Assembly (NCBI GenBank): GCA_022843285.1
Contig: JALHNY010000001.1
Coordinates: 79,128 to 143,127 of the forward strand
DNA from: Minisyncoccota bacterium
Lineage (GTDB): Bacteria; Patescibacteriota; Minisyncoccia; UBA6257; 2-01-FULL-56-20
Direction: 5' to 3'
Length of the DNA: 64,000 bases
Position 1 is the stretch's first letter. Each line of letters starts with the position of its first letter. The notes under the pieces are model-generated. The model had not been told where the DNA came from. It searched no databases and saw only the letters and a list, made by a program, of their open reading frames with translations. Shown in pieces: positions 2-63,781 of this stretch. Position numbers and translations under genes: made by a program.

Positions 2-1012
2 TTGCCAGATATAGAGGAGAGGATGAAGGTGGCGGGAGAATATCTGAATTCTGATCGGGAACCTGCGGGAGGGTGCGAATGCGTATACAAGGCACGTAAG
101 AAGCACTGTACGAGTTTCCAGCTATCAAACCCGCATATACCCGATTATTCCGTTCACGATTTGTCTGGCGTAAGTAAGAAGAAACTCGACCTTTTCGTCG
201 CGCGAGGCATCTTTGACCTGAACGATATTCCCGATGATTTTGAGCTGACAGAAAATCAAAAGAATCAAGTACTCGCGCACCAGCGGCAGAAGCCAATGAT
301 TGATACAAGGAGGATACAAGAGGAGCTTGGCACGCTTACATTCCCGCTCTATTTCTTCGACTACGAAGCATTCGGCCCAGCGATACCTGCATTCAGTGGA
401 TACGGTCCGTACAAACATATCCCGTTCCAGTTTTCTCTTCATGTACTTCGCACTTCCGATAGTCCCCTTGAGCACATAGAGTTTCTCCATGAGGATTTGT
501 CCGATCCGTCAGAGCGAGTTACCGAACTACTCAAAGAGCACGTGCCGCCCGGGGGAACCGTCATCGCGTGGTATAAGCACTTTGAGAGGATGGTCTGCAA
601 AGAAATTGGAGTGCGTTTGCCGCAACACGCTGCGTTTTTTGAGGAGTTCAACGGCCGCATTTACGATCTCATGGATGTGTTCCATGACCAGTACTACGTA
701 CACCCTGGCTTCAAGGGGAAGAGTTCTATAAAGAAAGTGCTACCGACACTTGCCGCTGATTTACGCTATGACCTTCTGAATATCAAAGAAGGCGGTCAGG
801 CCGCCGATGCGTGGTGGCGCATGGTATCGCCAGCTACTTCTCCCGAGGAGAAAGAACAAATCGCCCATGACCTTAAGGTGTATTGCGGCTTCGATACGTA
901 TGCTATGTATGCCATTTGGCATCATCTACATGAAATGGTTGCTGACGGCACAGTGTCCGCTCGATCCCTGTACGCGCCTATTCACGAGAATGAGAGATCA
1001 AACACCAAGTAA
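2..1012 (+). CDS. Nuclease-family domain protein (DUF2779-like; PD-(D/E)XK superfamily suspected), 5' end outside window
   Basis: ORF open to window edge; motifs FDYEAFGPAIP and VYCGFDTYAMYAIWHHL recalled from DUF2779-type proteins; region is lower GC (~48%) than rest of window. Confidence 0.4.
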   Translation: MPDIEERMKVAGEYLNSDREPAGGCECVYKARKKHCTSFQLSNPHIPDYSVHDLSGVSKKKLDLFVARGIFDLNDIPDDFELTENQKNQVLAHQRQKPMIDTRRIQEELGTLTFPLYFFDYEAFGPAIPAFSGYGPYKHIPFQFSLHVLRTSDSPLEHIEFLHEDLSDPSERVTELLKEHVPPGGTVIAWYKHFERMVCKEIGVRLPQHAAFFEEFNGRIYDLMDVFHDQYYVHPGFKGKSSIKKVLPTLAADLRYDLLNIKEGGQAADAWWRMVSPATSPEEKEQIAHDLKVYCGFDTYAMYAIWHHLHEMVADGTVSARSLYAPIHENERSNTK

Positions 1013-1750: not shown

Positions 1751-3054
1751 CTGTACCCACCGGAGCTGCGCTGGGGTCCGCGCGGCGTGCGTCGGCGCGG
1801 GGGACGGCTGCTCGAGCCGGAGGGTGACGCCCCGGGGCCGCCGGAGGTCCTGCGCGCGCCACGGTTGCCGCGCCCGCCGGGGCCGCGGAACCCGCCACCT
1901 CGTGCCGGGCGGCGCGGCTCGTCGGAGTACGTGCGGGTTGGCGGCTCGATGCTGCCCGCCGCGCGGGGCATGGCCATCTTCATGAGGCGCTCGATCTCCT
2001 CGACGTCGCGCTTCTGGTCCGGCGCGGCGAACGAGATCGCGTGGCCGGATGCCCCCGCCCGCGCGGTGCGCCCGATGCGGTGCACGTAGTCCTCGGCGTC
2101 CATGGGGAGGTCGTAGTTGACGACGAGCTCGATGCCCTGGACGTCGATGCCGCGCGCGGCAATGTCGGTGGCGACCATGACGCGGTACTTGCCGCGCTTG
2201 AAGCCCTCGAGCGCCTCGCGGCGCTGCGCGAGCGAGCGGTTGCCGTGGATCTCGGTCGAGGAGTGGCCCGCCTTGCGGATGGCGAGCGCGAGCTTCTTCG
2301 CGCCGTGCTTGGTGCGCGTGAAGACGAGCGTCGTGCCCTTGTACTCGCCGAGCACCTTCGCGAGGAGTGCTTCCTTGTCCGGGCGGTGCACGAAGTACAC
2401 CTCCTGGGAGACGTTCGTCGCCACGGTCCCGGGCGGCGCGATCTCGACGTGGGTCGGCATGCGCATCTGCGACTGCGCGATGGCGATGATGGGCTTGGGC
2501 ATCGTCGCGGAGAAGAGGAGCGTCTGCTTGCTCGCGGGGATAGCCGCCAGGATGTCCTTGAGCTGCGGCAGGAAGCCCATGTCCAGCATGCGGTCCGCCT
2601 CGTCGAGGACGAGGATGTTGATCCGGTTCAGGTGCAGCCTCTTCTGCTTCATGAGGTCGTTGATGCGGCCCGGCGTGCCGATGATGAAGTGGGGGTTGGC
2701 GCGGAGTCCGGACACCTGGCGGTTCTGGCTCTCGCCGCCGACCACGAGGACGCTCTTGAGCCCGAGCGGCTGGGCGAGCGGGCGGAGCGCCTCCTGCACC
2801 TGCTGGGCCAGCTCGCGCGTGGGCAGCACGACGAGCGCGAGGTTGCCCCGCAGCGCGCCCGCAATCAGCGGGATGCCGAAGGCGAGCGTCTTGCCCGTGC
2901 CCGTCTGGGCGAGGCCGATGACGTCCTGACCCTGCATGGCGAGGGGAATGGACTTCTCCTGGATGGGGGTGGGCGTGGTGAACTTCAGCTTGTCGAGCAC
3001 GCCGAGCACCTTCGGCGGGATGCCGAGGCCGTAGAACGAGGGGGAACCTTCCAT
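1732..3054 (-). CDS. DEAD-box ATP-dependent RNA helicase with C-terminal RG/P-rich tail
   Basis: PTPIQ, AQTGTGKT, VLDEADRMLDMGF, SAT, HRIGRTARAG motifs; start chosen at MEGSPSF (ATG 3052-3054) because TACAGT-N5-ATG leaderless box precedes it; ORF extends to 3108. Confidence 0.9.
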   Translation of the reverse strand: MEGSPSFYGLGIPPKVLGVLDKLKFTTPTPIQEKSIPLAMQGQDVIGLAQTGTGKTLAFGIPLIAGALRGNLALVVLPTRELAQQVQEALRPLAQPLGLKSVLVVGGESQNRQVSGLRANPHFIIGTPGRINDLMKQKRLHLNRINILVLDEADRMLDMGFLPQLKDILAAIPASKQTLLFSATMPKPIIAIAQSQMRMPTHVEIAPPGTVATNVSQEVYFVHRPDKEALLAKVLGEYKGTTLVFTRTKHGAKKLALAIRKAGHSSTEIHGNRSLAQRREALEGFKRGKYRVMVATDIAARGIDVQGIELVVNYDLPMDAEDYVHRIGRTARAGASGHAISFAAPDQKRDVEEIERLMKMAMPRAAGSIEPPTRTYSDEPRRPARGGGFRGPGGRGNRGARRTSGGPGASPSGSSSRPPRRRTPRGPQRSSGGYSRKPGN

Positions 3055-3144
3055 GGGCGCACTGTACCACGGACGGAGCCCGCGTGCGTGGCGGCAGCTC
3101 CTTGTCACTACGCCCCGCTGTCAGTATTCTTTTCCCCGACCTGA

Positions 3145-3217
3145 GCCCCTATAGCTCAGTTGGTAGAGCAGCTCCCTTTTAAGGAGACGGTCCTAGGTTC
3201 GAGCCCTAGTGGGGGCA
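3145..3217 (+). tRNA. tRNA-Lys (anticodon UUU)
   Basis: 73-nt cloverleaf folded by hand: acceptor GCCCCTA/TAGTGGGGGC, D-arm GCTC..GAGC, anticodon loop CTTTTAA, T-arm CTAGGTTCGAGCCCTAG; no encoded CCA. Confidence 0.9.
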
Positions 3218-3239
3218 CACCCTTTGCGTTTCTCAAGTC

Positions 3240-4493: not shown

Positions 4494-5383
4494 TGTTCAA
4501 CATCGCAAAGCTCCGCAACCTGTACCTCGGCATCGCGGCCGTGCTCCTCATCGCCGCCATCTCGCTGATCGGCAAGTACGGCTTCGAGCTCGGCATCGAC
4601 TTCACCGGTGGTGCGCTCTGGGAGGTCTCCGTCCCGTCCGCGACCCCCGAGCAGCTCGGGTCGGCGATCAGCGCGTCGACGGACACCACGGCGCACGTCA
4701 GCACGGACGCGACGAGCGGCCACTACCTCGTCCGCCTCGGCGACGCGTCGCCGGAGCTGTACCAGAACGTGCGCACCGTCGTGGGCGAGCAGTTCGGCGA
4801 GTACTCGGAGCACAGCTTCCAGTCCATCGGCCCGTCCGTGTCGGGCAAGCTGCGCACGGGCGCGCTCGCCGCGATCATCACGGTCATCACCCTGATCTCG
4901 CTCTACATCGTCTTCGCGTTCCGCGGCGCGACGGGCACCCTCGGCAGCTGGGCGTACGGCGTGTCGACGCTCGTCACGCTCTTTTACGACGTAGCCCTCC
5001 CGTCCGCGGTCATCGCCGTGCTCGGCCACTACGGGCAGGTCGAGCTCGACACGAACTTCGTCGTGGCGCTCCTGGTCATCATGGGCTTCTCGGTGCACGA
5101 CACCATCGTGGTGTTCGACCGCGTCCGCGAGAACCTGCGCACGACGCGGGGGACACTCGGCGAGATCGTGAACGCGTCCGTGCGCCAGACCCTCGCCCGC
5201 TCGCTCAACACCTCGTTCACCCTGGTCCTGGTGCTCATCGCCCTCCTGGTCCTGGGGCCGCCCACCCTCTGGTACTTCATCCTGATCCTCCTGATCGGCA
5301 CCGTCGGGGGAGCGTACTCGTCCATTTTCGTGGGCGCCCCCATCCTCCTGCTTTTCGGCCGAAAATCCGGGAAAAAGGGGTGA
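4493..5383 (+). CDS. secF: Protein translocase subunit SecF
   Basis: GIDFTGGALWEV motif and C-terminal SecDF TM bundle. Confidence 0.9.
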   Translation: MFNIAKLRNLYLGIAAVLLIAAISLIGKYGFELGIDFTGGALWEVSVPSATPEQLGSAISASTDTTAHVSTDATSGHYLVRLGDASPELYQNVRTVVGEQFGEYSEHSFQSIGPSVSGKLRTGALAAIITVITLISLYIVFAFRGATGTLGSWAYGVSTLVTLFYDVALPSAVIAVLGHYGQVELDTNFVVALLVIMGFSVHDTIVVFDRVRENLRTTRGTLGEIVNASVRQTLARSLNTSFTLVLVLIALLVLGPPTLWYFILILLIGTVGGAYSSIFVGAPILLLFGRKSGKKG

Positions 5384-5391
5384 GCCGAGCC

Positions 5392-5420
5392 TTGACGTAT
5401 CAGCCAAACTAAGTCATTAT
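5392..5420 (+). promoter_or_regulatory. sigma70-like promoter TTGACG-N17-CATTAT, ~15 nt before ATG 5436
   Basis: cTTGACGtatcagccaaactaagtCATTATtatcccacaaaaccgATG. Confidence 0.35.
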
Positions 5421-5435
5421 TATCCCACAAAACCG

Positions 5436-6467
5436 ATGTCCATCAACAAACTCATCGAGAACGCGTGGTCCCACCTCCAGCCCCGCCAGCAGGACATCCT
5501 CGCTGGCCGCTTTGGCGTCGGCGAGTACGACGAGCAGCAGACCCTCGCGGCTCTCGGCGACCGGTACGGCATCACGCGCGAGCGCGTCCGGCAGATTGAG
5601 TCCGCCGCGCTCGCATCGCTGCGCGAGGGCCTCTCCGAGTACCCCGAGGCGAAGGCCCTCGTGGAGAAGGTGCGCAAGGTGGTGAAGGAGCACGGGGGAG
5701 TGGCGTCCGTCGACCAGGTCATCGCGGGCACCCGCGCCGACGCGAAGGACATCACGCCGAACTCCCTGCAGCTCATCATCCGCGCGATGAACAGCATCCA
5801 CTACCACGCGGGTGACGACCGCTTCGTCGCCGCGTACGCGACCGACGCCGCGACCTTCAAGCAGGCCTCCGAGACCGTGTCGGCGTGGATCAAGCTCCTC
5901 GAGCAGAAGAAGGGCTCGGTCATCTCCGGTGACGCGTACCGCAAGCTGCTCTCGTCCTTCAGCAAGGACCGGGGCGTGCCGCTGCGCCACCTCGAGCACT
6001 TCGCGTCCCTCTCGAAGCAGATCGTCACGAACTCGTACGGCGAGACCGGCCTGTCCCACTGGACCGAGGTGAACCCGCGCACGGTCCGCGACCAGATCTA
6101 CCTCATCCTGCGCAAGCACGACGCGCCGCTCCACTTCGAGGAGATCGCGACCGCCATCAACAAGAGCGGCATCTCGGCGCGCCCGGCGCTCTCTGCGACC
6201 GTGCACAACGAGCTCATCAAGGACGAGCGCTTCGTGCTCGTCGGCCGCGGCAAGTACGCGCTCGCCGAAGCTGGGTACGAGCCCGGCACCGCCCGCGACG
6301 TGGTGCACCGCATCCTGTCCCAGAAGGGCCCGCTCACCCCGCCCGAGGTCATCCAGGCGGTGCAGAAGGAGCGCCTCTTCAAGCCGAACACCATTCTCGT
6401 GAACCTGCAGAACCGCCAGCACTTTACGCGCAACCCGGACGGCACGTACCAGGTTCGCGAAGCCTAG
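5436..6467 (+). CDS. HTH protein with sigma-70 region-4-like N-terminus and two C-terminal winged-helix-like repeats; first gene of 5-gene operon
   Basis: QTLAALGDRYGITRERVRQIESAAL resembles sigma70 region 4 HTH; repeated ...GKYALAE / ...GTYQV modules; 9-nt gap to next gene. Confidence 0.5.
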   Translation: MSINKLIENAWSHLQPRQQDILAGRFGVGEYDEQQTLAALGDRYGITRERVRQIESAALASLREGLSEYPEAKALVEKVRKVVKEHGGVASVDQVIAGTRADAKDITPNSLQLIIRAMNSIHYHAGDDRFVAAYATDAATFKQASETVSAWIKLLEQKKGSVISGDAYRKLLSSFSKDRGVPLRHLEHFASLSKQIVTNSYGETGLSHWTEVNPRTVRDQIYLILRKHDAPLHFEEIATAINKSGISARPALSATVHNELIKDERFVLVGRGKYALAEAGYEPGTARDVVHRILSQKGPLTPPEVIQAVQKERLFKPNTILVNLQNRQHFTRNPDGTYQVREA

Positions 6468-8174: not shown

Positions 8175-8177
8175 CAG

Positions 8178-9284
8178 ATGGCAGAGAAGGGACAGAATCG
8201 CATCCAGCTCCACGCGGTGAAGTACTCGCCGCCGCCGGCCGATTTGCCGGTGTACGGCGCGAACTCCGGCGCGCAGATGACCGTGCTCGGGCGCAGCACG
8301 TACGTCGCCGCGCTCGACGAGCAGCGCTACGTGTACGGCATCCTCGAGGAGGATCGCGCCGCCGGCGTGCACGTGCTCGGCCGCGCCGGCATGGGCAAGA
8401 CGAAGCTGCTAGAGTCCATGGCCCGCCAGGACATCGCGGCCCGGCGCACCTTCGCCGTGATCGACGCGACGGGGAACCTGGCCACGAGCATCCTGCCGCT
8501 CCTCGACGGGGAGGCGAAGTCGCAGACGGCGCTCATCGGCAACGGCTGGGACGCGAGCGTCTCGCTCCTGCCGCGCTCCGGTGACGAGCTCCGCTTCGCG
8601 GACACGCTCGCCACCGCGACCGCCGAGTACGCGGGCACGAGCTTCGACCCGCTGCTCCGCCGCGAGCTCGCGGCCGTCCTGTCCTCGCAGAAGTTCGCTA
8701 CCGTTGCCGACCTCCTCCCCGCGCTTCCCGTGAAGCCCGTGATGGAGCCGGTGCGCGCGCTCCTCGAGGACCTGCTCGACCACCCGACCGCAAAGGCCGC
8801 GCTCTCCGGCACCCGCCCGATTGCCGGCAACGTCATCGCCGTGCTCTCGCCAGCGGACCTCGGCTTCTCGCGCGCCCGCGCCATCGCGCACCTGGTCAGC
8901 GACGCGGTGCTCTGGGCGCGCGAGCACGACGAGCTGCCCACGCCCTTCTACGTGGACGGCCTCGAGCTCCTGGGCGGCAGGGGAGGCGTGGCGCTCCTGC
9001 GCGACATGGCAGCCGCGAAGGTGCTGCCCGTCCTCGCGCACCGCGCCTACGCCGACGTGTCCGATGCGCTCCTGTCCGCCATGTCCGCAACGATTGGCAC
9101 CGAGGTCGCGTTCCGGCTCTCCGGCGAGGACGGCTCGCGCGCGCGCAACGAGTTCGCGCAGACCTTTGACGTGCGCGACTTCCTCGTGCTCGCCACCCGG
9201 CAGTGCTACGTGAGGCTCCAGATCAGGGGAGAGATTCGCGAGCCGTTCTCGGCGGAGACGCTGCCGCTCGTGGCCCCGAGATAG
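8178..9284 (+). CDS. P-loop ATPase, TraG/VirD4/TrwB (type IV coupling protein)-like, no TM segment, degenerate Walker B
   Basis: Walker A GRAGMGKTKLL; ...AVIDATGNL; C-terminal PFYVDGLELLGG...AHRAY resembles TraG-D_C but Walker B Glu replaced by Gly (VDGLE). Confidence 0.55.
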   Translation: MAEKGQNRIQLHAVKYSPPPADLPVYGANSGAQMTVLGRSTYVAALDEQRYVYGILEEDRAAGVHVLGRAGMGKTKLLESMARQDIAARRTFAVIDATGNLATSILPLLDGEAKSQTALIGNGWDASVSLLPRSGDELRFADTLATATAEYAGTSFDPLLRRELAAVLSSQKFATVADLLPALPVKPVMEPVRALLEDLLDHPTAKAALSGTRPIAGNVIAVLSPADLGFSRARAIAHLVSDAVLWAREHDELPTPFYVDGLELLGGRGGVALLRDMAAAKVLPVLAHRAYADVSDALLSAMSATIGTEVAFRLSGEDGSRARNEFAQTFDVRDFLVLATRQCYVRLQIRGEIREPFSAETLPLVAPR

Positions 9285-20085: not shown

Positions 20086-21276
<1,191 letters not shown>

Positions 21277-21328
21277 GCAAAGAGCTACCCGTTCAGGGTA
21301 GCTCTCGTTTCACGACACAAGTCGGTCC

Positions 21329-21568
21329 TCAACTGACCAGAATAATCCGCTCTGTAAAGGTGCCGCGGGATTCAGCTTTGAGCTTCTTGATCTCCCAGAT
21401 GGCGTCCCAGTTCATGCCGCGGTACTCCAGTATGGCTTCCAGAACCTCCAGGATGTCGGCGATCTCTCCGGTGTTTTCCGAAGACGTAAACTCGTCCGCC
21501 TCCTCGTGGAGCTTCTTCTTGAGCTCTGCCCAGTACTCGTCATCGGTTGCGATGTGAGTGACCGCCAC
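21329..21568 (-). CDS. Small MazG/HisE-like all-alpha NTP pyrophosphohydrolase
   Basis: KKLHEEADEF...GEIADILEVLEAILEYRGMNWDAI matches HisE/MazG EExxE...ELGDLL pattern; located in low-GC island. Confidence 0.5.
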   Translation of the reverse strand: MAVTHIATDDEYWAELKKKLHEEADEFTSSENTGEIADILEVLEAILEYRGMNWDAIWEIKKLKAESRGTFTERIILVS

Positions 21569-21599
21569 AGCGCCGTCTTTGCGAATGATGTCGGGAATC

Positions 21600-22007
21600 T
21601 TATCCCGTACCAGTTTCTACGTTTTCATTTTGAACCTCCAGCGTTTTTTTGAAATCGTGCAATGCCATAAGTCCGCCGAGGATGAAGCAGGGCATTTTTA
21701 GCTTCTTCACCCACAGCCAGGTTCGAAACTGTGCCACCGTAGCCTTACCTCGCGCGTGGCGACGCTCTAGGGTTCTCCACGTCTTACGATACGCGATCAA
21801 GCTCGATCGTAGGTTCTCGAGCGCGACTAGAGACATAAGTAGGTTCAGTGGCCAGATTTCTGGCACGTATCCCGGTAGATCAGACTGTACAAAGTTTAGG
21901 ATGTTCGCCGTGATGACCAGAGACAGGCACAGGCCTGTCACCGGATTCACTATTACTAGCTGCAATCGTTTGAGCACACCAACGTGCACCCGAGTAGTTT
22001 TAAACAT
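21600..22007 (-). CDS. Hypothetical protein (low-GC island)
   Basis: ORF in ~47% GC region ending 32 nt before MazG-like gene; no recognisable motif; competing + strand ORF. Confidence 0.25.
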   Translation of the reverse strand: MFKTTRVHVGVLKRLQLVIVNPVTGLCLSLVITANILNFVQSDLPGYVPEIWPLNLLMSLVALENLRSSLIAYRKTWRTLERRHARGKATVAQFRTWLWVKKLKMPCFILGGLMALHDFKKTLEVQNENVETGTG

Positions 22008-22162
22008 TCAGGTTCTCCCAGATTGAAATTTGATAAGCACTTTGGCTTCACTGATTAGGACTATGCCAATTGGGGCCTTTTAAATCCATAGTCGTGACGC
22101 AAATTGTATATTGTGCGACATGCAAGGAGAAACAAGGTGTGGGGCTTGAAAACCCCACCGCT

Positions 22163-22633
22163 TCAGCCGATTACGTCCGGCCAGTCGTCCTCCCCTCGCT
22201 CGTCAGTCTCCTCGATCAGCTCTGCGGGCATTGCGCCGAGGAAAGCTTCGCCCTCGCCGATGCGGTTCCAGGTGTGCTCGATGAGCACGTTGACTGCTCC
22301 GATAATTGTGTCCGGGAAGTCACCGCTGCCGGCGCTGTCATACTCAAGCACCAGGTGCCTCTCGCCCACGCAGACCGCGATCACGCCGTCGGTGAGCAGC
22401 AGGTTCGCCACGAAAGACTGCAGCTCGAGCGGCAAGCTCAGGATGGATCCCCCGAACTCATCGACGCGCAGGCTCACCGTTGAACCCTCGCTTCCCTCTT
22501 CGGGCTCGAAGCCCTCGCTGAGTTTGAACATTGCCGGCTCATCCGTGATGAGGCAGGCAAACTGCAGCACGGGCGCAATCGCTCCCGAGGGTTCTAGCTC
22601 CCAGGTCGGCGCTACCGCCATTCCTAACTCCAT
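22163..22633 (-). CDS. Acidic hypothetical protein (pI very low; immunity-protein-like composition)
   Basis: good RBS aggagaagaaaaaaATG; Asp/Glu-rich; no known motif. Confidence 0.45.
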   Translation of the reverse strand: MELGMAVAPTWELEPSGAIAPVLQFACLITDEPAMFKLSEGFEPEEGSEGSTVSLRVDEFGGSILSLPLELQSFVANLLLTDGVIAVCVGERHLVLEYDSAGSGDFPDTIIGAVNVLIEHTWNRIGEGEAFLGAMPAELIEETDERGEDDWPDVIG

Positions 22634-22790
22634 TTTTTTCTTCTCCTATTCTGGCATTAAGTTTCCGCCACCAGGCTACCCTCCCCTCCCGGGCGTGACA
22701 AGCTAGCCCACTGGTGGTCTGACTGGACTCCCAAAGTGCGCAAAAGCGCGGACGCACCCTCAGGTGAATCCGCGCTTCGAGTTGTACCGC

Positions 22791-23342
22791 CTACTGGGCG
22801 ATGGCCACCTGCTCGATGACCTTCTCCTCGAGAGGAGGCAGGCCGACACCCTTCCTGAGCACCGTGTAGCCCCAGTGACGCCAGTTGCTGTTCTTCTCCA
22901 GAATCATGTGCTTAGCAACTTTCTTCTGAAGCGAGCAGCTGTACAGGAGCTCCTCCCATGAGGTTACCGTCGTGGCGTCTACCAGACCGTAGCGGGTCGA
23001 GTACGCCTTGAAGGTAGCCATCTGGAACTGGAGGCAGCCGTAGCTGTAGCGCCCATTCACGTCGAGGACCTTGATCCTCTCGCGGTTGTTGGACTCCTTT
23101 TCGGCGAGGTGGTCGAGCCACGCATCCAGGTTCGTGTAAACCAGGGTCGTGCTCGCAGTCGTCGAAGCGGTGTTCGGGATGGTTCCCATTACCGTGCTCG
23201 AAGTGGTCGAGCTGGTAGCGGGCTTAGCAGTTGAGCCGTATGTAGCCGTCGCGGTTATTGCATTCAGGTTGGTGGTGAGTAAACCGCTCACCACCGCCCC
23301 TACTGCCGCACTCACGACAACGTTTTTGAGGTTGATACCCAT
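22791..23342 (-). CDS. Secreted lysozyme-like / transglycosylase-like protein with Ser/Thr-rich linker
   Basis: signal peptide; S/T-rich low-complexity linker; C-terminal ESNNRERIKVLDVNGRYSYGCLQFQMATF resembles CESGGN...GLFQF of Rpf/SLT-like domains. Confidence 0.45.
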   Translation of the reverse strand: MGINLKNVVVSAAVGAVVSGLLTTNLNAITATATYGSTAKPATSSTTSSTVMGTIPNTASTTASTTLVYTNLDAWLDHLAEKESNNRERIKVLDVNGRYSYGCLQFQMATFKAYSTRYGLVDATTVTSWEELLYSCSLQKKVAKHMILEKNSNWRHWGYTVLRKGVGLPPLEEKVIEQVAIAQ

Positions 23343-23601
23343 TCAGCGGCAAAGTTGGCAATATCGAGATCTGTCGTTCGCTCCAACTTGCCTGAAACTG
23401 TGCCCCTCTTTCATTAGGCGCAGACTCAGACAAACCACGTGCTCTTGGGAACAAAAAACCTGCGCGCGGCAGATTTAACTGCCCGCAGTATACACCCGGC
23501 GGGGGCCCCCGGTCAAGCCCCTTTGTGGCAACAACTCGTGAAAAAGCTTGGAAATGCTAGCCCTTTTCGGCTATTTCGTGGTACTATCCACAGGCACTTT
23601 C

Positions 23602-24369
23602 ATGGGCAAATCCTTCTCCCCCACCCCCGATCAGTTCCGCCAGGAAAACGGGTACGAAATTGACGGCGTCTGGTACCCCCGGGTGACGTCCATTGTCGGC
23701 ATCAAGGCGAAGCCGGCGCTCTACCGCTTCTACGGAGAGCAGCCGAGCTTCTACGCCGGCCAGCAGGTCACCGAACGTTCGGCAGAAGAGGGCACGCGCA
23801 TTCACGAGGCGGCGCAGGCAATCCTGCTCGGAGAAGAGCCGGAGGTGCCCAACGACATCGCCCCCGCGATTCAGGCGTTCCGCAAGTTCATCGAGCGGCA
23901 GCCCATCACCACGGAGGCAGCCCACATCGAGCGGCGCATCCACCACCCCGAGATGCGCTACGCCGGGACCATCGACATTCTCGGCACCATGAAGGGCCGC
24001 GTGGGCGTCATCGACATCAAGACGTCCCAGGCCATCTACCGGGACTACAACCTCCAGACCTCCGCGTACATGGAGGCGCTGCTCCCCGACTTCCCCGATC
24101 TCTCGACGCGCTGGATCCTCCGCCTGGACCAGCTCCAGTTCTGCCAGGACTGCAACTCGAGCCGCCGCGTGAAGGGCGGGCGCGAGAAGATTAAGAAGGA
24201 CTACACATCGAAGGTGAAATCCTGCGGCATCCACATCTGGGGTCCGGTCACGGGCATCGCCCAGATCAAGGAGTTCCCAGACTGGAAGGACGACTACGCC
24301 GGCTTCCTGGCTGCCAAGCGCCTCTGGGAGTGGGAGAACGCGGAGCTGCTCGAGAGCATCGGCTACTGA
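23602..24369 (+). CDS. PD-(D/E)XK superfamily nuclease (YqaJ/Cas4-like fold)
   Basis: RIHE...GTIDIL...GVIDIKT...QTSAYM (D, (D/E)xK, QxxxY motifs); ORF-track start 23548 probably upstream extension. Confidence 0.6.
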   Translation: MGKSFSPTPDQFRQENGYEIDGVWYPRVTSIVGIKAKPALYRFYGEQPSFYAGQQVTERSAEEGTRIHEAAQAILLGEEPEVPNDIAPAIQAFRKFIERQPITTEAAHIERRIHHPEMRYAGTIDILGTMKGRVGVIDIKTSQAIYRDYNLQTSAYMEALLPDFPDLSTRWILRLDQLQFCQDCNSSRRVKGGREKIKKDYTSKVKSCGIHIWGPVTGIAQIKEFPDWKDDYAGFLAAKRLWEWENAELLESIGY

Positions 24370-24505
24370 CGCTCCCCGCAGGCCTCAAAAACGAGCTTCG
24401 GCACTCCCCTCACCCCGGCGGCGTACCCAACGGCAGAGGCGCAGAAGGTTGCCAGGGCAAAGAGGGCTGCCAGGTAGTAGATGCTCAAGCGAAACCGGGG
24501 CCTAA

Positions 24506-24533
24506 TTGACACTCCGCCAGCCTACAGTACAAT
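24506..24533 (+). promoter_or_regulatory. Canonical sigma70 promoter TTGACA-N16-TACAAT upstream of rpmA with hairpin-containing ~55-nt leader
   Basis: aaTTGACActccgccagcctacagTACAATtgcc; leader hairpin GGGGCgttaaGCCCC. Confidence 0.45.
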
Positions 24534-24588
24534 TGCCAGGCACTACTGAGCGGGGCGTTAAGCCCCCTCGCACCACTTTTCTACTGCT

Positions 24589-24867
24589 ATGGCACATACA
24601 ATGTCAGGTGGATCAACCCGCAACGGGCGTGATTCACGTGCCAAGAGCCTCGGCGTGAAGATGCACGACGGCGCCATTGCTGCACCCGGCATGATCATCA
24701 TCCGCCAGCGCGGCCTGAAGTACCTCCCGGGTGAGGGCGTCCGCCGCGGCGACGATGACACGCTGTACGCGATCACCGAGGGCGTCGTGCGCTACGGCAC
24801 CGCACGCAAGAAGAAGTTCGATGGCAACACCCGCGTCGCCACTATTGTGGCTGTACGCGCGCAGTAA
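24589..24867 (+). CDS. rpmA: 50S ribosomal protein L27
   Basis: [24 protein letters not shown]...IIIRQRG matches L27 N-terminus. Confidence 0.85.
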
Positions 24868-28213: not shown

Positions 28214-28729
28214 TCAGCCGAGGAACGTGATTCCCGACCGCGGCAGGTAGCCCTTTGAGACGATGACTATCGCCCCGTTGCGAACGAGTCCCGAAGAAAC
28301 CGTGCGGCTCTCCATCGTGCGCTCCCGGAAGTCGAAGGTGACCTCCTGGTAGCTCGAGTTGCTGCCCTGGTCGGGCACGGTGACGACGAATTTGGTCTGG
28401 CGTTTCTTGCCAGTCCGCTCTCGCAGCCAAGCCTTCAAGCTCTTGGAACACGCTTCGGACTTCATGCACCCCGTGAACATTTCTCCGAACCTCGCCGCGG
28501 ATAACGCGCGCGACTGGTCCGTGAGCCTGCCAACGGGGAGCTCTCCATCCGGGCTCGAAACTTGGACGACCTCGAAATCTCCGAGGTTCGCCTTCATTCT
28601 CGCGGGTTGAGCTGGCACGTCTCGCCAGCTCCTGGTGCTCGTGCTCTCGTGCAACTGCCCGAGACGCTCTTCGCGTTGCTCATTCATGGAAACCAGCGAC
28701 GTGCCGGCTCCAGAGTCGTAACTAGACAT
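28214..28729 (-). CDS. Hypothetical protein in AT-richer segment downstream of helicase-nuclease
   Basis: RBS ggagagaaaataaATG; ~52% GC; no motif recognised. Confidence 0.45.
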   Translation of the reverse strand: MSSYDSGAGTSLVSMNEQREERLGQLHESTSTRSWRDVPAQPARMKANLGDFEVVQVSSPDGELPVGRLTDQSRALSAARFGEMFTGCMKSEACSKSLKAWLRERTGKKRQTKFVVTVPDQGSNSSYQEVTFDFRERTMESRTVSSGLVRNGAIVIVSKGYLPRSGITFLG

Positions 28730-39839: not shown

Positions 39840-40072
39840 GCGACCGGCGCCGCGTCCGGTGCGACCTCGTCCTCGGGGTTGCTCTCGCGGTCGGCGATGA
39901 GCTGCTCGAGGAGGGCTACCTGCTCACCCTTCTGGGTGGCGAGCTGGTCCCAGAACGCGAGGAGCTCCTCGTCCCCCTCCGCGTCCTCCCGGTAGTCGTT
40001 GAGGATGCGCCAGAGGCTCTTGTGCTCCTGCACGGCTTGCATCATGAGGTTATACACGTTGTTGTCGTACAT
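39836..40072 (-). CDS. Hypothetical small acidic protein (78 aa)
   Basis: leaderless TACTAT-N6-ATG upstream; first gene of 4-gene minus-strand operon ending in nth. Confidence 0.35.
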
Positions 40073-40114
40073 GCGTGCATAGTACCATACCGTGGCTCAC
40101 CAAAATCAACTTCC

Positions 40115-40435
40115 ATGCTCAAAGAATTCAAGGAGTTCGCCATGCAGGGCAACGTGCTCGACCTGGCCATCGGCGTCATCATCGGTGCCGCGTTCGGCAA
40201 GATCGTGACCTCGCTCGTGAATGACATCATCATGCCGCTCATCGGCATCATCCTGGGCGGCTACGACTTCAAGACCATGTCGCTCTCGATCGGCGAGTCC
40301 ACGCTCATGTACGGCGCGTTCATTCAGAACATTGTCGACTTCGTCATCGTAGCCTTCGTCATCTTCATCTCAATCCGCACGATCAACCGCGTCTCCAAGC
40401 GGCAGGTCGCGACGGTCGAGAAGAAAGCTGAGTAA
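40115..40435 (+). CDS. mscL: Large-conductance mechanosensitive channel
   Basis: [31 protein letters not shown]...IMPLIG signature; ORF-track start 40022 is extension. Confidence 0.85.
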
Positions 40436-44379: not shown

Positions 44380-44970
44380 CTACCTGGTCACGGAGACCAG
44401 TTCCGGCGCGACGTTTTCCATGTTCTTCTTTGCGTCTGCTTGGGCGACCACCTGCTCGAAGACAGAGGAGATGCTCTCGTCGTAGTCGAACGTCCACCAG
44501 CTCAGGGCGTTCTGGTCAAAGAACGCGCACTGATCTGGGGAGGGCTCGTCTAGGATGACGTACACGTCCTGGAACCTTTTGCCAAAGCGCAGAGCCTCGG
44601 CGTGCGTCCGAGCACGAATGTCGAACTGCACGATTCCCTGACGCGCCATCTTCCTCATCCCGCCGCCCGTGTCGTCCACGTTGCGGATGGGATTCGTTTT
44701 CAGACCCGGGATGAATACGCGAGAGCCGAATGGTACCAGCTGCGGTGCAGCTGCCACTCCATTAGGTTTTCGTGCATCGGTGCCTGTCGCGGTCTTCTTT
44801 CCGCCCGACCACTTCTCACAACAGATAGAGCATGTGCAGTAGCTGGTGAGCTTGGCGCGGACTTTGTAGACCTTCGGTGCAGGGAGCTGTGCTTCCTGCG
44901 CGGTTGCCTGAGAGACAAAAAGAAAATTAATGAAAATTATTACGAATAAGAAAGTTTTGTATTGGAACAA
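44380..44970 (-). CDS. Secreted 3D-domain protein (MltA C-terminal-like, YuiC-type cell-wall protein)
   Basis: AT-rich signal peptide MFQYKTFLFVIIFINFLFVSQATA; KLTSYCTCSICCEKW...GVAAAP...FGSRVFIPG...VDDTGGGM...VQFDIR 3D-domain pattern; TTG start with AGGAGG SD. Confidence 0.6.
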   Translation of the reverse strand: MFQYKTFLFVIIFINFLFVSQATAQEAQLPAPKVYKVRAKLTSYCTCSICCEKWSGGKKTATGTDARKPNGVAAAPQLVPFGSRVFIPGLKTNPIRNVDDTGGGMRKMARQGIVQFDIRARTHAEALRFGKRFQDVYVILDEPSPDQCAFFDQNALSWWTFDYDESISSVFEQVVAQADAKKNMENVAPELVSVTR

Positions 44971-45018
44971 AAATGCTTTCCTCCTTTGTTAAAGTTCTAA
45001 CTGCTAAATAGCTCACGC

Positions 45019-62203: not shown

Positions 62204-63222
62204 CAGGATGACCTCTTGTTGAGGAGCGTGCGCTTGTACACGTCGATGTGGCTCAGGATGAGGCCCGTGCCCTTGGCGACGCAGTAGAGCGGATCCTCCG
62301 CGAGGTACACCGGCACGCCCAGGAACCGCTCGAAGAACTGCGGCAGGTAGTTGAGCTGCCCCGTGCCTCCCGAGATAATGATTCCCTTCTCCATGATGTC
62401 CGCGACGAGCTCGGGCGGGGTGTCGTTGAACACGTTCTGCACGGCCTGGTACACCTCCATGAGGAGCGGGTTGAGCGCGTCGGCAATCTCGTTGCTCGTA
62501 AGCGTGACGTCCTTGGGTAGGCCCGAGGCGAGGTCGCGGCCGCGCACCTGCATCTCGCGGCGGTCCTTCGTGATGAGCGCAGAGCCGACCTTCATCTTTA
62601 TGTTCTCGGCGGTCTGGTCTCCGATTGAGAGGCCGTACTTCTTCTTGATGTAGTCGCTGATGGCGCCATCGAACTTGTTGCCCGCTACGCGCAGCGACGC
62701 CCACGACACGATGTTGCCGAGCGCTATGACCGCGACCTCGGAGGTGCCGCCGCCCATGTTGATGATCATGTGGCCCGAGCGCGCGTTGATCGGGATGCCC
62801 GCGCCGAGCGCCGCGAGGATCGGCTCACGGACGATGAACGCCTGGCGCGCGCCGGCCTCCTTGGCGGCGTTGATCACCGCGCGGCGCTCCGTCTGCGTGA
62901 TGCCGGCGGGCACGGAGATGACGACCTCGGGGCCCATGATGTCCCACCAGTTCGTCGCCTTGGCGATGAAGTACGTCAGCATCGCCTTCGTGATGTAGTA
63001 GTCCGCCACCACGCCGTCCTTGAGGGGGCGGTACGCGACGATGTCGTCCGGCGTGCGGCCGACCATCTCCTTGGCCTCGGCGCCCACGGCGAGCACCGTG
63101 TTGTCGGGCTTGGAGAGCGCCACGATGGTGGGCTCGTTGATGATGAAGCCCCGCCCCGGGACGAAAACGACAGTGTTAGCCGTCCCCAGGTCGATGCCGA
63201 TTTTCCTCGTGAAAACGCCCAT
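62203..63222 (-). CDS. mreB: Rod shape-determining protein MreB
   Basis: IGIDLGTANTVV, actin-fold phosphate/adenosine motifs. Confidence 0.9.
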   Translation of the reverse strand: MGVFTRKIGIDLGTANTVVFVPGRGFIINEPTIVALSKPDNTVLAVGAEAKEMVGRTPDDIVAYRPLKDGVVADYYITKAMLTYFIAKATNWWDIMGPEVVISVPAGITQTERRAVINAAKEAGARQAFIVREPILAALGAGIPINARSGHMIINMGGGTSEVAVIALGNIVSWASLRVAGNKFDGAISDYIKKKYGLSIGDQTAENIKMKVGSALITKDRREMQVRGRDLASGLPKDVTLTSNEIADALNPLLMEVYQAVQNVFNDTPPELVADIMEKGIIISGGTGQLNYLPQFFERFLGVPVYLAEDPLYCVAKGTGLILSHIDVYKRTLLNKRSS

Positions 63223-63300
63223 GTACGAGGCGGATTCTATGCGCTACTCCCCCGCCGGGCAACCTCCGCCGGGACACCTATCCCCAGGAGACAAAAGCTT

Positions 63301-63336
63301 AAAAAGGTAGAATAAAAACAACCCCTTTATAGGGGA
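63301..63336 (-). terminator. Weak rho-independent terminator after small gene (CCCCTataaAGGGG + U-rich)
   Basis: short stem, long T-rich tail on minus strand. Confidence 0.3.
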
Positions 63337-63377
63337 TGGTGTGGGACGAGACGCGCGTACTCTACACTACGACCCTC

Positions 63378-63611
63378 TTACTGTCCGGTAATCAGATCGT
63401 TGAGCGACTTTACTCCGCGCTGCTTAAGCAGGGTGCCGAGCTTCATGTCGCTCCGGACTCCCAGGTCCACGCTGTACTTGTCCTCAATCGTTTTGACGAG
63501 GGTGTCGCTGCGCTTCTGGCGGAGCCGACCGTTTCCCTCGTTGCGAGGACGGTAGCCTGCCATTCCCGGTGCATCCGGCCGCCTATTGGTGTTTGCCATT
63601 AGGTTAAGCAT
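63378..63611 (-). CDS. Small basic protein (77 aa), possibly DNA-binding (HhH/SAP-like C-terminus)
   Basis: Arg-rich N-terminus, ...MKLGTLLKQRGVKSLNDLI...; preceded by ~170-nt structured leader. Confidence 0.35.
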   Translation of the reverse strand: MLNLMANTNRRPDAPGMAGYRPRNEGNGRLRQKRSDTLVKTIEDKYSVDLGVRSDMKLGTLLKQRGVKSLNDLITGQ

Positions 63612-63781
63612 TCACTAGTGAAAGAACCTTCGACTTGGTTCCTGACCGATACACGGCCCTGGTCGGCGGAAGGTCGGTCAATCAGGAGTCTCCGGCAGTA
63701 CGCGCGTCTGCGTACCCGCGGGGATGTTAGCAATCTTTGAGCGAGACTGCTAGTTCACTTGGCACTTCTACCCCATTAACT

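Follow-up and report, generated by a model that had tools for sequence, protein, structure and literature searches.

Does a stretch of low GC content that carries phage-flavoured genes and lies between two housekeeping genes mark inserted DNA? The question is raised by a locus between rarA and rpmA in 64,000 nucleotides of the genome of a Minisyncoccota bacterium (contig JALHNY010000001.1; this whole stretch is called the window below). Its host lineage belongs to the Patescibacteria, a mostly uncultivated group of bacteria with tiny genomes and a presumed life on other cells. A preliminary description made from the sequence read the locus as an old insertion or remnant, with the flavour of a phage-derived or defence/counter-defence island, and listed five open reading frames (ORFs), all of which are present where it placed them. 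Our comparison with relatives points elsewhere: the stretch is probably a conserved chromosomal locus of one high-GC clade of Patescibacteria, and not an inserted element. It would have three parts, namely an operon for a lysozyme-like protein (sec183) behind a structured RNA leader, a slot of gene turnover beside rarA, and a native nuclease gene. As an island the locus is ordinary; its value lies in an undescribed leader RNA, a new lysozyme-like family and two hypervariable orphan genes, which encode an acidic protein (acid156) and a small basic membrane protein (TM135).

The GC drop that had been reported across 21.3–23.6 kb was borne out by measurement. The window has a GC content of 65.6% overall (mean 0.657, standard deviation 0.048, in 500-bp windows), against which 21.2–23.6 kb falls to 0.49–0.60 in 400–500-bp windows, with a minimum about 3.5 standard deviations below the window mean. 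The dip is two-lobed (21.2–22.2 kb and 22.8–23.6 kb, 0.54–0.59), with acid156 in between at 0.60–0.63, and its minimum (0.488 at 21.6–22.1 kb) coincides with a divergent allele tract described below. Comparable dips occur elsewhere in the window, at 1–1000, around 40000, at 44500–45000 and at 63200. GC content at third codon positions (GC3) was 0.93 for RarA, 0.90 for the nuclease, 0.78 for sec183 and 0.79 for the acidic gene; it was 0.57 for the membrane gene and about 0.57 for an adjoining MazG-like gene, compared to about 0.9 for typical genes of the window. Two causes would give rise to the dip: weak codon bias in lineage-restricted, fast-evolving genes (GC3 0.57–0.79), with an imported allele of lower GC content supplying the remainder.

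Was the stretch inserted into this genome, or inherited with it? Informative relatives were obtained by exact-protein look-up of sec183 homologues. They comprise same-species strain contigs (L081–L086), which are at least 99% identical to the window, and nine species-level relatives that include the sister species L096; seven further species are represented by L087/88, L089/90, L091/92/97, L094, L148, L149 and L150. The neighbours of the locus encode GluRS, an M23 peptidase, RarA, L27, L9, an S41 protease, deformylase and Fmt, and gene order was kept in all relatives. On the left GluRS, M23, a small ORF and RarA are followed by the variable genes; on the right the acidic gene lies downstream of the lysozyme-like gene, both pointing left, and is followed by the nuclease gene, which points right, and by L27, L9, S41, deformylase and Fmt. 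Some relatives have extra genes between the nuclease and L27. Both sec183 and the nuclease were found at the same site in nine of nine relatives and the acidic gene in eight (L150 is without it), and the slot adjoining rarA is the only part of the locus that varies among them.

Sequence conservation tells the same genes apart. Seven relatives have a complete RarA, which is 70–86% identical to that of the window. In L096 the identities are 86% for RarA, 94% for L27, 89% for the nuclease, 94% for sec183, 87–88% for the MazG-like protein, 56% for the membrane protein and 43% for the acidic protein. Every gene of the locus is under purifying selection (ratio of non-synonymous to synonymous substitution rates, dN/dS, 0.09–0.30), and few genes of the neighbourhood are as well conserved as sec183 and the nuclease gene. 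The genes of the locus are GC-poor in the relatives measured too: 0.49–0.57 compared to 0.61 overall in L087, 0.54–0.60 compared to 0.63 in L089, 0.57–0.59 compared to 0.65 in L091, and 0.53–0.58 compared to 0.59 in L096. As nine relatives share the genes and their order, and those measured the lower GC content, the stretch appears to have been inherited and not inserted.

Searches for the machinery of insertion agree with this. No Pfam or NCBIfam domain of an integrase, recombinase or transposase was found in any ORF between rarA and rpmA, no att-type flanking repeats at the locus (only short, chance-level repeats), and no tRNA target beside it, the sole tRNA of the window lying at 3145–3218. 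An empty site was not found in close relatives, as the locus is occupied in all nine. The preliminary description had itself seen no integrase or att sites, and its guesses at domains (MazG-like, lysozyme/Rpf-like, PD-(D/E)XK, acidic) were good ones. Its reading of an old insertion between rarA and rpmA, for which it proposed a comparison of synteny as a check, does not stand up to that comparison: close relatives carry the same genes with the same composition, which is the outcome that the description itself had named as refuting it, and nine of them share the gene order and the compositional dip. What is left of the island is a small gene-turnover slot adjoining rarA, with one recent allele replacement.

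The nuclease gene forms the right-hand part of the locus (23602–24369, plus strand) and encodes a 255-amino-acid (aa) PD-(D/E)XK protein that resembles RecB, MGME1 and phage exonucleases. It scored 22.0 bits against PF12705 (cut-off 22), matched PHROG 298 ('exonuclease') at 7e-26 and MGME1 with an E-value of 0.005, and its motifs H-E, D, D-x-K and Q...Y aligned with those of MGME1 (RIHEAAQ, GTIDILG, VIDIKTS, NLQTSAY). Annotated phage exonucleases are 29–31% identical to it. Translation most likely starts at ATG 23602, which matches the MGKSF start of orthologues, while the mechanical ORF begins at TTG 23548; the 18 extra codons at 23548–23601 encode a hydrophobic stretch that is absent in most orthologues. 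A −10-like TACTAT lies about 14 nt before ATG 23602, and because it is so close the nuclease mRNA may be nearly leaderless. The earlier assignment of a standalone PD-(D/E)XK nuclease is right as to family, and wrong in placing the gene within an island. It lies outside the GC dip (GC 0.64, GC3 0.90), has native composition and is a core gene; every relative has an orthologue at this position, 69–89% identical. An identity as Cas4 was not supported (TIGR00372, 13.7 bits compared to 65; no cas genes among the neighbours in the window or in relatives), and an AddA-like helicase-nuclease is encoded a few kb away in relatives. We conclude that the gene is a native core gene, probably for an exonuclease of recombination or repair, and not a defence gene.

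These results bear on the reading that the locus is a remnant of a phage-derived defence or counter-defence element, with nucleotide depletion by the MazG-like enzyme and the nuclease as its active parts. MazG-like and PD-(D/E)XK domains are common in phage-derived and defence islands, GC content and GC3 are low, and two slots with strain-level turnover, both with orphan genes as cargo, flank the core of the locus. Even so, we regard this reading as extremely improbable. The synteny and the compositional dip are common to nine species, the nuclease is native in composition and present in every relative, the locus is without integrase, att repeats or tRNA, and the MazG-like gene is broken in this strain. 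A search with PADLOC-DB 2.0 gave no defence system: the nuclease drew only weak, sub-significant nuclease-domain hits (Cas4 8e-4, DruK 3e-3), and the four non-nuclease proteins and the slot cargo of relatives had no match.

At the centre of the locus lies sec183 (22791–23342, minus strand), which had been described as a secreted protein with a Ser/Thr-rich linker and a lysozyme/Rpf-like motif. This description holds. A hydrophobic anchor or signal (residues ~5–26) is followed by a conserved NLNAIT, a Ser/Thr-rich linker (~30–68) and a catalytic domain (70–175) with the motif YSYGCLQFQ and a supported lysozyme-like fold. We found 55 homologues and aligned 44, among which E83, S84, D94, N96, Y99, S100, G102, C103, Q105 and Q107 are invariant and C136 nearly so. 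E83 and S84, at the end of helix 71–84, make up the E-S motif of lytic transglycosylases in all 44 sequences. The AlphaFold2 (AF2) model has a predicted local distance difference test (pLDDT) score of 94–98 over residues 70–170. In Foldseek searches of the PDB with this model, the leading matches were all lysozymes or lytic transglycosylases (i-type lysozyme 3ab6, Bdellovibrio DslA, EtgA, hen lysozyme, RpfB and Slt), and in BFVD, a set of viral models, all were SLT or LT_GEWL proteins; probabilities reached 1.00, with modest E-values of 1e-3 to 0.2. In a profile alignment E-S-N...YSYGCLQFQ of sec183 corresponded to E35...DYGILQIN of c-type lysozyme.

Two features set sec183 apart from described families. 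The invariant Ser100 occupies the position of hen lysozyme Asp52, so the second catalytic carboxylate of GH22 is lacking. Against PF06737 (Rpf-like) the protein scored 16.5 bits, under the gathering threshold of 27; at E ≤ 0.01, 14 of the 44 family members, though not the protein of the window, matched PF06737 (best 8.5e-6) and 6 of the 44 matched PF01464 (SLT). Judged by its predicted fold, sec183 is a new family within the lysozyme/lytic-transglycosylase superfamily. With only one catalytic carboxylate, it is most likely a lytic transglycosylase in its chemistry and would cut peptidoglycan glycan strands, with the cell's own wall or a host wall as target. A secreted enzyme acting on a cell wall, as first suggested, is plausible. 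That sec183 is 94% identical between sister species, where RarA is 86% identical, points to a core function. We also observed that sec183 (0.26) and the L27 gene (24589–24867; 0.22) differ from their L096 counterparts by a synonymous divergence (dS) about one third as high as that of neighbouring genes (0.65–0.82), which may reflect selection on synonymous sites or a more recent exchange between the two species.

Could sec183 and TM135 together be a domesticated phage lysis cassette? Under this reading sec183 would be an endolysin of the signal-anchor-release type and TM135 a holin- or pinholin-like protein, kept for programmed lysis or release of contents. Catalytic-domain homologues with a hydrophobic N terminus do occur in 13 IMG/VR contigs and one phage-like contig, Gly, Ala, Ser and Val abound in the sec183 anchor, and TM135 resembles holins in being small and fast-evolving, with two predicted helices and a charged C-terminal half. 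Several results stand against these. No other phage gene is present at the locus, which in nine species is bordered left and right by housekeeping genes; sec183, under strong purifying selection, has changed less than RarA; and a Ser/Thr linker of about 40 residues separates its anchor from its domain. The membrane gene forms its own transcription unit past a terminator, with the acidic gene and that terminator between TM135 and sec183, and it is absent from L088, L094, L148, L149 and L150, all of which keep sec183. TM135 matched no annotated holin family, and its PHROG hits were weak (E 0.008–0.44) and to families of unknown function. We think a lysis cassette quite improbable.

The viral contigs have contexts of their own. 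In L095, a 36-kb Logan contig (SRR27710294), the lysozyme-like gene follows a gene for a 2347-aa protein and precedes a module of AAA_24, PD-(D/E)XK, SSB and Metallophos genes. In several of L095 and the IMG/VR contigs L135–L147, a 359-aa PG_binding_1 protein is encoded within a few kb of the lysozyme-like gene. These contigs are possibly phages of Patescibacteria. Among GenBank phage records, sec183 found no match in cultured phages.

How is sec183 expressed? A spacer of 259 bp separates it from the divergent nuclease gene and holds, on the sec183 strand, a promoter-like site, a hairpin and a leader. The sigma-70-like promoter candidate (TTGACC-N18-TATACT, 23487–23516, minus strand) matched the scan at 10 of 12 positions, and six species share its TTGAC and TATA(C/A) blocks. 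Between this site and the leader, a scan and the six-species alignment revealed a short GC hairpin with a U-run (23456–23476, minus strand), whose structure is kept in relatives while its sequence has changed; it may stabilise the 5' end or act as an attenuator. The leader itself spans 106 nt (23335–23440, minus strand) and includes P1, a long hairpin with a GAAA-containing loop, P2, a helix around an invariant internal loop (GAGCGAACGA...CGAUAUUGC), and P4, a short hairpin that holds the AUG and codon 2.

A covariance model (R1) built from six species found the leader upstream of sec183 in nine of nine relatives, with 93–130 bits. R1 found no copy elsewhere in the window, upstream of distant sec183 homologues or in the viral loci. 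The leader is 72–95% identical to that of the window, compared to 45–83% at third codon positions of sec183. Its pairing holds in 97.9% of cells, compared to 22–43% with slid partners; double changes occur at four pairs of P1 and P2 (11 cells), a level reached in 0 of 500 shuffles; and its G-U pairs fit the sec183-sense strand only. None of the 4227 families of Rfam 15 matched at E ≤ 1 within 21000–24700, and over the whole window only one tRNA reached a gathering score. An upstream ORF in the leader was rejected, as the ATG is absent in five of nine species and indels are not multiples of three. So were alternative helices from a single-sequence fold (a closing GUGGU with GCCGC, and CCCA-UGGG), which are not conserved across the relatives; the closing helix has no covariation support. 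We infer that the leader is a cis-regulatory element of the sec183 mRNA: the operon would be transcribed from its own promoter through the 106-nt leader, which holds the start codon in a small hairpin and would gate expression of sec183.

Downstream of sec183 lies acid156 (22163–22633, minus strand), which as first noted encodes a strongly acidic 156-aa protein behind a strong Shine-Dalgarno (SD) sequence, AGGAG. The protein has an isoelectric point (pI) of 4.05, with 31 Asp and Glu residues compared to 5 Lys and Arg, no N-terminal hydrophobic segment, and a conserved C-terminal motif, (E/D)(E/D)WP(D/R)xI. Only 2 matches were found among 5.8 billion proteins, and in L096, L087, L091, L149, L094 and L148 the gene immediately downstream of sec183 is a positional homologue. 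For acid156 we obtained a dS of 2.1 and a dN/dS of 0.2. Its AF2 model, made from three sequences, was poor (pLDDT 48). The spacer that separates acid156 from sec183 contains a 15-nt inverted repeat (22744–22777, minus strand), found by repeat search and possibly an intercistronic hairpin. A consensus scan found a terminator-like hairpin with a T-rich tail (22139–22158, minus strand) 5 nt past the acid156 stop codon, with an analogous hairpin after the acidic gene in L087, and this hairpin would end the sec183-acid156 transcription unit. Thus read, acid156 would be a fast-diverging cytoplasmic protein co-transcribed with sec183 as far as the terminator.

This arrangement might be read as a module of effector and immunity, or of host attack, in which sec183 would be a secreted wall-degrading effector and the acidic protein its cognate inhibitor or immunity protein, with diversifying selection from an arms race. 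A small co-transcribed gene does lie directly downstream of sec183 in eight of nine species; the acidic alleles are extremely divergent, as at immunity loci (dS 2.1 compared to 0.65–0.8 in the flanks); and a role in compromising host envelopes has been proposed for patescibacterial lytic transglycosylases (PMC11665869). We nonetheless judge such a module to be very improbable. The acidic protein has neither signal peptide nor anchor and hence would not be in the compartment where peptidoglycan is cleaved. There is no co-evolution between the two proteins, sec183 being 94% identical between sister species where the acidic protein is 43% identical. Nor does the acidic protein show any similarity to known immunity proteins in Pfam, PADLOC or the PDB.

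The slot beside rarA is where strains of this species differ. The convergent rarA gene (stop codon 21274–21276) and MazG-like gene are separated by a perfect 10-bp inverted repeat (AGAGCTACCC gttca GGGTAGCTCT, 21281–21305), which is probably a bidirectional terminator hairpin; the consensus terminator scan was silent on it because its T-run is short. The larger gene of the slot encodes TM135 (21600–22007, minus strand, with a GGGAG SD sequence). This 135-aa ORF had been called unassignable, and turns out to be a genuine gene with orthologues in L081, L096, L087, L089 and L091. The protein is basic (pI 10.2; 10.2–11.7 across the family), with two predicted N-terminal helices and a C-terminal half rich in Lys and Arg. 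Nine residues are invariant in the family (N21, P22, Y73, R74, W99, P106, C107, G111 and A115), and dN/dS is 0.13–0.30. Outside the clade no homologue was found among 1.84 billion representative proteins, where the search returned TM135 itself and spurious repeat hits, and an exact-sequence contig look-up for TM135 came back empty. Profile searches of the PDB with the TM135 and acidic families gave chance-level matches only.

The TM135 gene overlaps by 29 nt the start of a gene for a COG4997 MazG-like all-alpha NTP pyrophosphohydrolase, which is disrupted in this strain (21329–21628, minus strand; delimited from intact relatives and a homologue search). Its ATG (21628–21626) stands behind a GGAGG SD sequence, and codon 4 is a TAG stop (21619–21617). 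Intact versions of 99 and 101 aa in L081 and L096 have CAG at codon 4 and likewise overlap the end of the membrane gene with their start, and the stop is confined to this strain. The preliminary description had taken the 79-aa ORF at 21329–21568 for a HisE/MazG-like enzyme; the family was correctly recognized, whereas the ORF, with a GTG start and no SD sequence, is the 3' remnant of a gene of about 100 codons cut by the TAG. The remnant is without the invariant N-terminal LVRD..P segment (K-LVRDKIP; L6, V7, R8, D9, P12).

With the intact form as query we found 118 homologues of about 100 aa, many of them named 'house-cleaning noncanonical NTP pyrophosphatase (MazG superfamily)' or 'phosphoribosyl-ATP pyrophosphohydrolase' (JGI, NCBI). 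The acidic motif EExxE(x9-28)ExxD is present (LHEEADEF...GEIADILE), and E42, E43, E46, E55, D58 and E61 are invariant in 28 homologues. Pfam PRA-PH scored 14.9 bits, under its cut-off of 21.3, and the family profile matched only all-alpha NTP pyrophosphatases in the PDB (HisE, YpjD, 2q73, 5ie9 and 1vmg), weakly, with E-values of 0.02–0.8. From these motifs and profiles the family assignment appears sound, and the copy in the window is most likely inactive. Compared with L096 the gene has a dN/dS of 0.10, and given this purifying selection the stop must be recent. A COG4997 MazG-like gene also lies about 0.7–1 kb from a full-length sec183 homologue, on the opposite strand, in two distant Patescibacteria (L102, 2943–3266; L105, ~2926–3216). 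We rejected a tie between the two genes on this basis: the setting in L102 is one of housekeeping genes (AspRS, NDK, AlaRS), and the proximity is probably coincidence.

Comparison with L081 revealed a divergent allele tract at 21557–22138. Over some 520–580 bp the window differs by about 36% from strains to which it is about 99% identical elsewhere: about 200 differences to L081 fall within 21557–22075 and a few more up to 22138, compared to 100 single-nucleotide polymorphisms in the remaining 9.5 kb. The tract takes in the whole of TM135, together with its upstream region and some 20 codons at the start of the MazG-like gene. Its GC content is 48.7% here and 56.2% for its L081 counterpart, at 5293–5696 of that contig. 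Several of the Logan assemblies L082–L086 break at or near it. The two TM135 alleles are homologous (56% identity, E 8e-53, dN/dS 0.25), and their dS of 1.5 is about twice the between-species dS of the flanking genes (0.65–0.8).

What could have produced such a tract? Hypermutation was rejected, as the substitution spectrum is mixed, with 92 GC-to-AT changes, 50 AT-to-GC changes and many transversions. Positive selection on the membrane and acidic genes is likewise unsupported by their overall dN/dS of 0.13–0.30, at saturated dS. The simplest reading of the alignment is that the tract is an old or foreign allele imported by homologous recombination from a relative of lower GC content. The slot in this genome would hold the basic two-helix membrane protein and the COG4997 MazG-like gene; recombination with a divergent, lower-GC relative would have brought in the TM135 allele and the first ~20 MazG-like codons, and with them the TAG that inactivates the MazG-like gene.

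Turnover at this slot is seen in other species as well. L087 and L088 are strains 99% identical to each other, and the membrane gene is present in one and absent in the other. In other species the cargo consists of orphans, a secreted protein of 176–186 aa or a protein of 211–221 aa, and the orphans in the slots of relatives had no Pfam, PADLOC or PHROG match. Between L087 and L088 two differing slots (8175–8961 and 11212–11798 in L087) flank a conserved core; in the slot between the nuclease and L27, one strain carries a lone orphan of 226 aa where the other carries two, of 214 and 220 aa. The right-hand boundary of the variation between these strains lies just past a conserved promoter-like sequence, TGTCGCA(C/T)AATATAC, which also occurs in the window at about 22106–22121.

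Several points weigh against an inherited locus with the parts proposed above. A MazG-like gene at this locus was seen only in this species and in its sister species L096, and it may have been acquired horizontally in their common ancestor, in which case part of the stretch is foreign; such an older acquisition is possible because of the two-species distribution and the low GC3, the GC3 of the membrane and MazG-like genes (~0.57) being far under that of typical genes of the window. A single clade was sampled. The nearest GTDB representatives by RarA (63–66% identical), which are labelled Candidatus Saccharibacteria or other Patescibacteria, share the adjacency of M23 and RarA with the window but nothing downstream of rarA, and they are too distant for a test of synteny. 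The sec183 catalytic domain, behind an N-terminal hydrophobic segment, is found in the 13 IMG/VR contigs and the phage-like contig mentioned above; the family is therefore common to phages and this bacterial group, and a phage origin of sec183 is possible. As for the leader, its covariation rests on nine related sequences and four covarying pairs, which is modest support, and the terminator-like hairpin lies 5' of the motif, not 3', unlike the standard layout of a riboswitch. The roles given here to the acidic and membrane proteins are putative.

A bolder reading combines the leader with the two orphan genes. The leader would be a new class of ligand- or protein-sensing RNA that controls a wall enzyme, and the acidic and membrane proteins would form an undescribed hypervariable system (for example of strain compatibility, immunity or phage exclusion), with alleles older than the species and exchanged by recombination. 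In keeping with it, the leader is unmatched, both proteins are orphans under purifying selection, and their synonymous divergence is 2–4 times that of the flanks. We hold this to be unlikely.

Other parts of the window are also compositionally unusual. The gene for a DUF2779 protein at the edge of the window (2–1012, plus strand; Pfam 5e-36) has a GC content of 0.50 and a GC3 of 0.54, and is perhaps more likely than the stretch at 21.2–23.6 kb to be foreign DNA. Further dips in GC or GC3 lie at 44380–44970 and 28214–28729 (both minus strand), around 40000–40400 and at 63200–63700. The first two of these are orphan ORFs without a Pfam match, with GC3 of 0.70 and 0.77, respectively. The 171-aa one of these two has positional counterparts in relatives, between Fmt and the AddA-like helicase.

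The conserved locus favoured here matters in several ways. As a well-defined and highly conserved surface enzyme, sec183 is a candidate for remodelling of the wall or for opening the host envelope, and the leader, a candidate new cis-regulatory RNA, offers a concrete candidate for how sec183 is controlled. The acidic and membrane genes mark a spot of difference between strains that are otherwise 99% identical, and so give a handle on selection in natural populations. Surface lytic transglycosylases of Patescibacteria have been proposed in a review to breach the host envelope, and natural regulatory RNAs are of practical interest as expression switches in these bacteria (PMC11665869). There is also a caution for the scanning of genomes: a dip in GC and GC3 together with phage-flavoured domains proved to be a vertically inherited, lineage-specific locus, and it was the relatives that overturned the call of an island.

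How does the locus compare with known systems? With genomic islands and integrative elements it shares a local dip in GC and GC3, orphan genes and strain-level variation in content; it differs in being without an integrase, att repeats or a tRNA target and in having the same composition in all sampled relatives. The disrupted gene has the EExxE...ExxD motif of MazG, HisE and YpjD, the COG4997 all-alpha NTP pyrophosphohydrolases, and intact relatives of about 100 aa, whereas the copy in the window has a stop at codon 4, no LVRD..P segment and no context of histidine biosynthesis or MazEF. The nuclease resembles RecB-family exonucleases (PHROG 298, MGME1, Cas4) in its MGME1-aligned motifs and strong PHROG match. 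Unlike phage recombination exonucleases and Cas4, it is encoded by a chromosomal core gene adjoining rpmA, where neither phage recombination partners nor a CRISPR locus are close by, and in place of the four-Cys cluster of Cas4 and AddB its sequence has what appears to be a C-x2-C ... C-x-H insertion.

The predicted fold of sec183 and its Glu-Ser at a helix end are those of PF06737, PF01464, EtgA, DslA and the i- and c-type lysozymes. In contrast to them, it falls under every Pfam cut-off and has Ser100 at the Asp52 position; its architecture of anchor, NLNAIT, Ser/Thr linker and domain is its own, and the family is limited to Patescibacteria-like genomes and to viral contigs with the domain. 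The closest parallel for the leader is the ydaO (c-di-AMP) riboswitch, which sits upstream of rpf genes in Actinobacteria. Both are structured leaders directly 5' of a gene for an Rpf- or lysozyme-like peptidoglycan hydrolase; the leader described here differs from ydaO and other Rfam families in being unmatched, in occurring so far at one locus of one clade, and in its terminator-like hairpin on the 5' side.

Finally, loci for surface antigens, immunity and specificity are hypervariable, and ancient alleles are exchanged among them by homologous recombination. While the genes here encode an acidic protein of the cytoplasm and a small basic protein of the membrane, for which no link to an antigen, receptor or immunity was found, the locus resembles such loci in the very high synonymous divergence of two genes between conserved flanks, and in that strains about 99% identical to one another show an allele swap in one case and the presence or absence of a gene in another.

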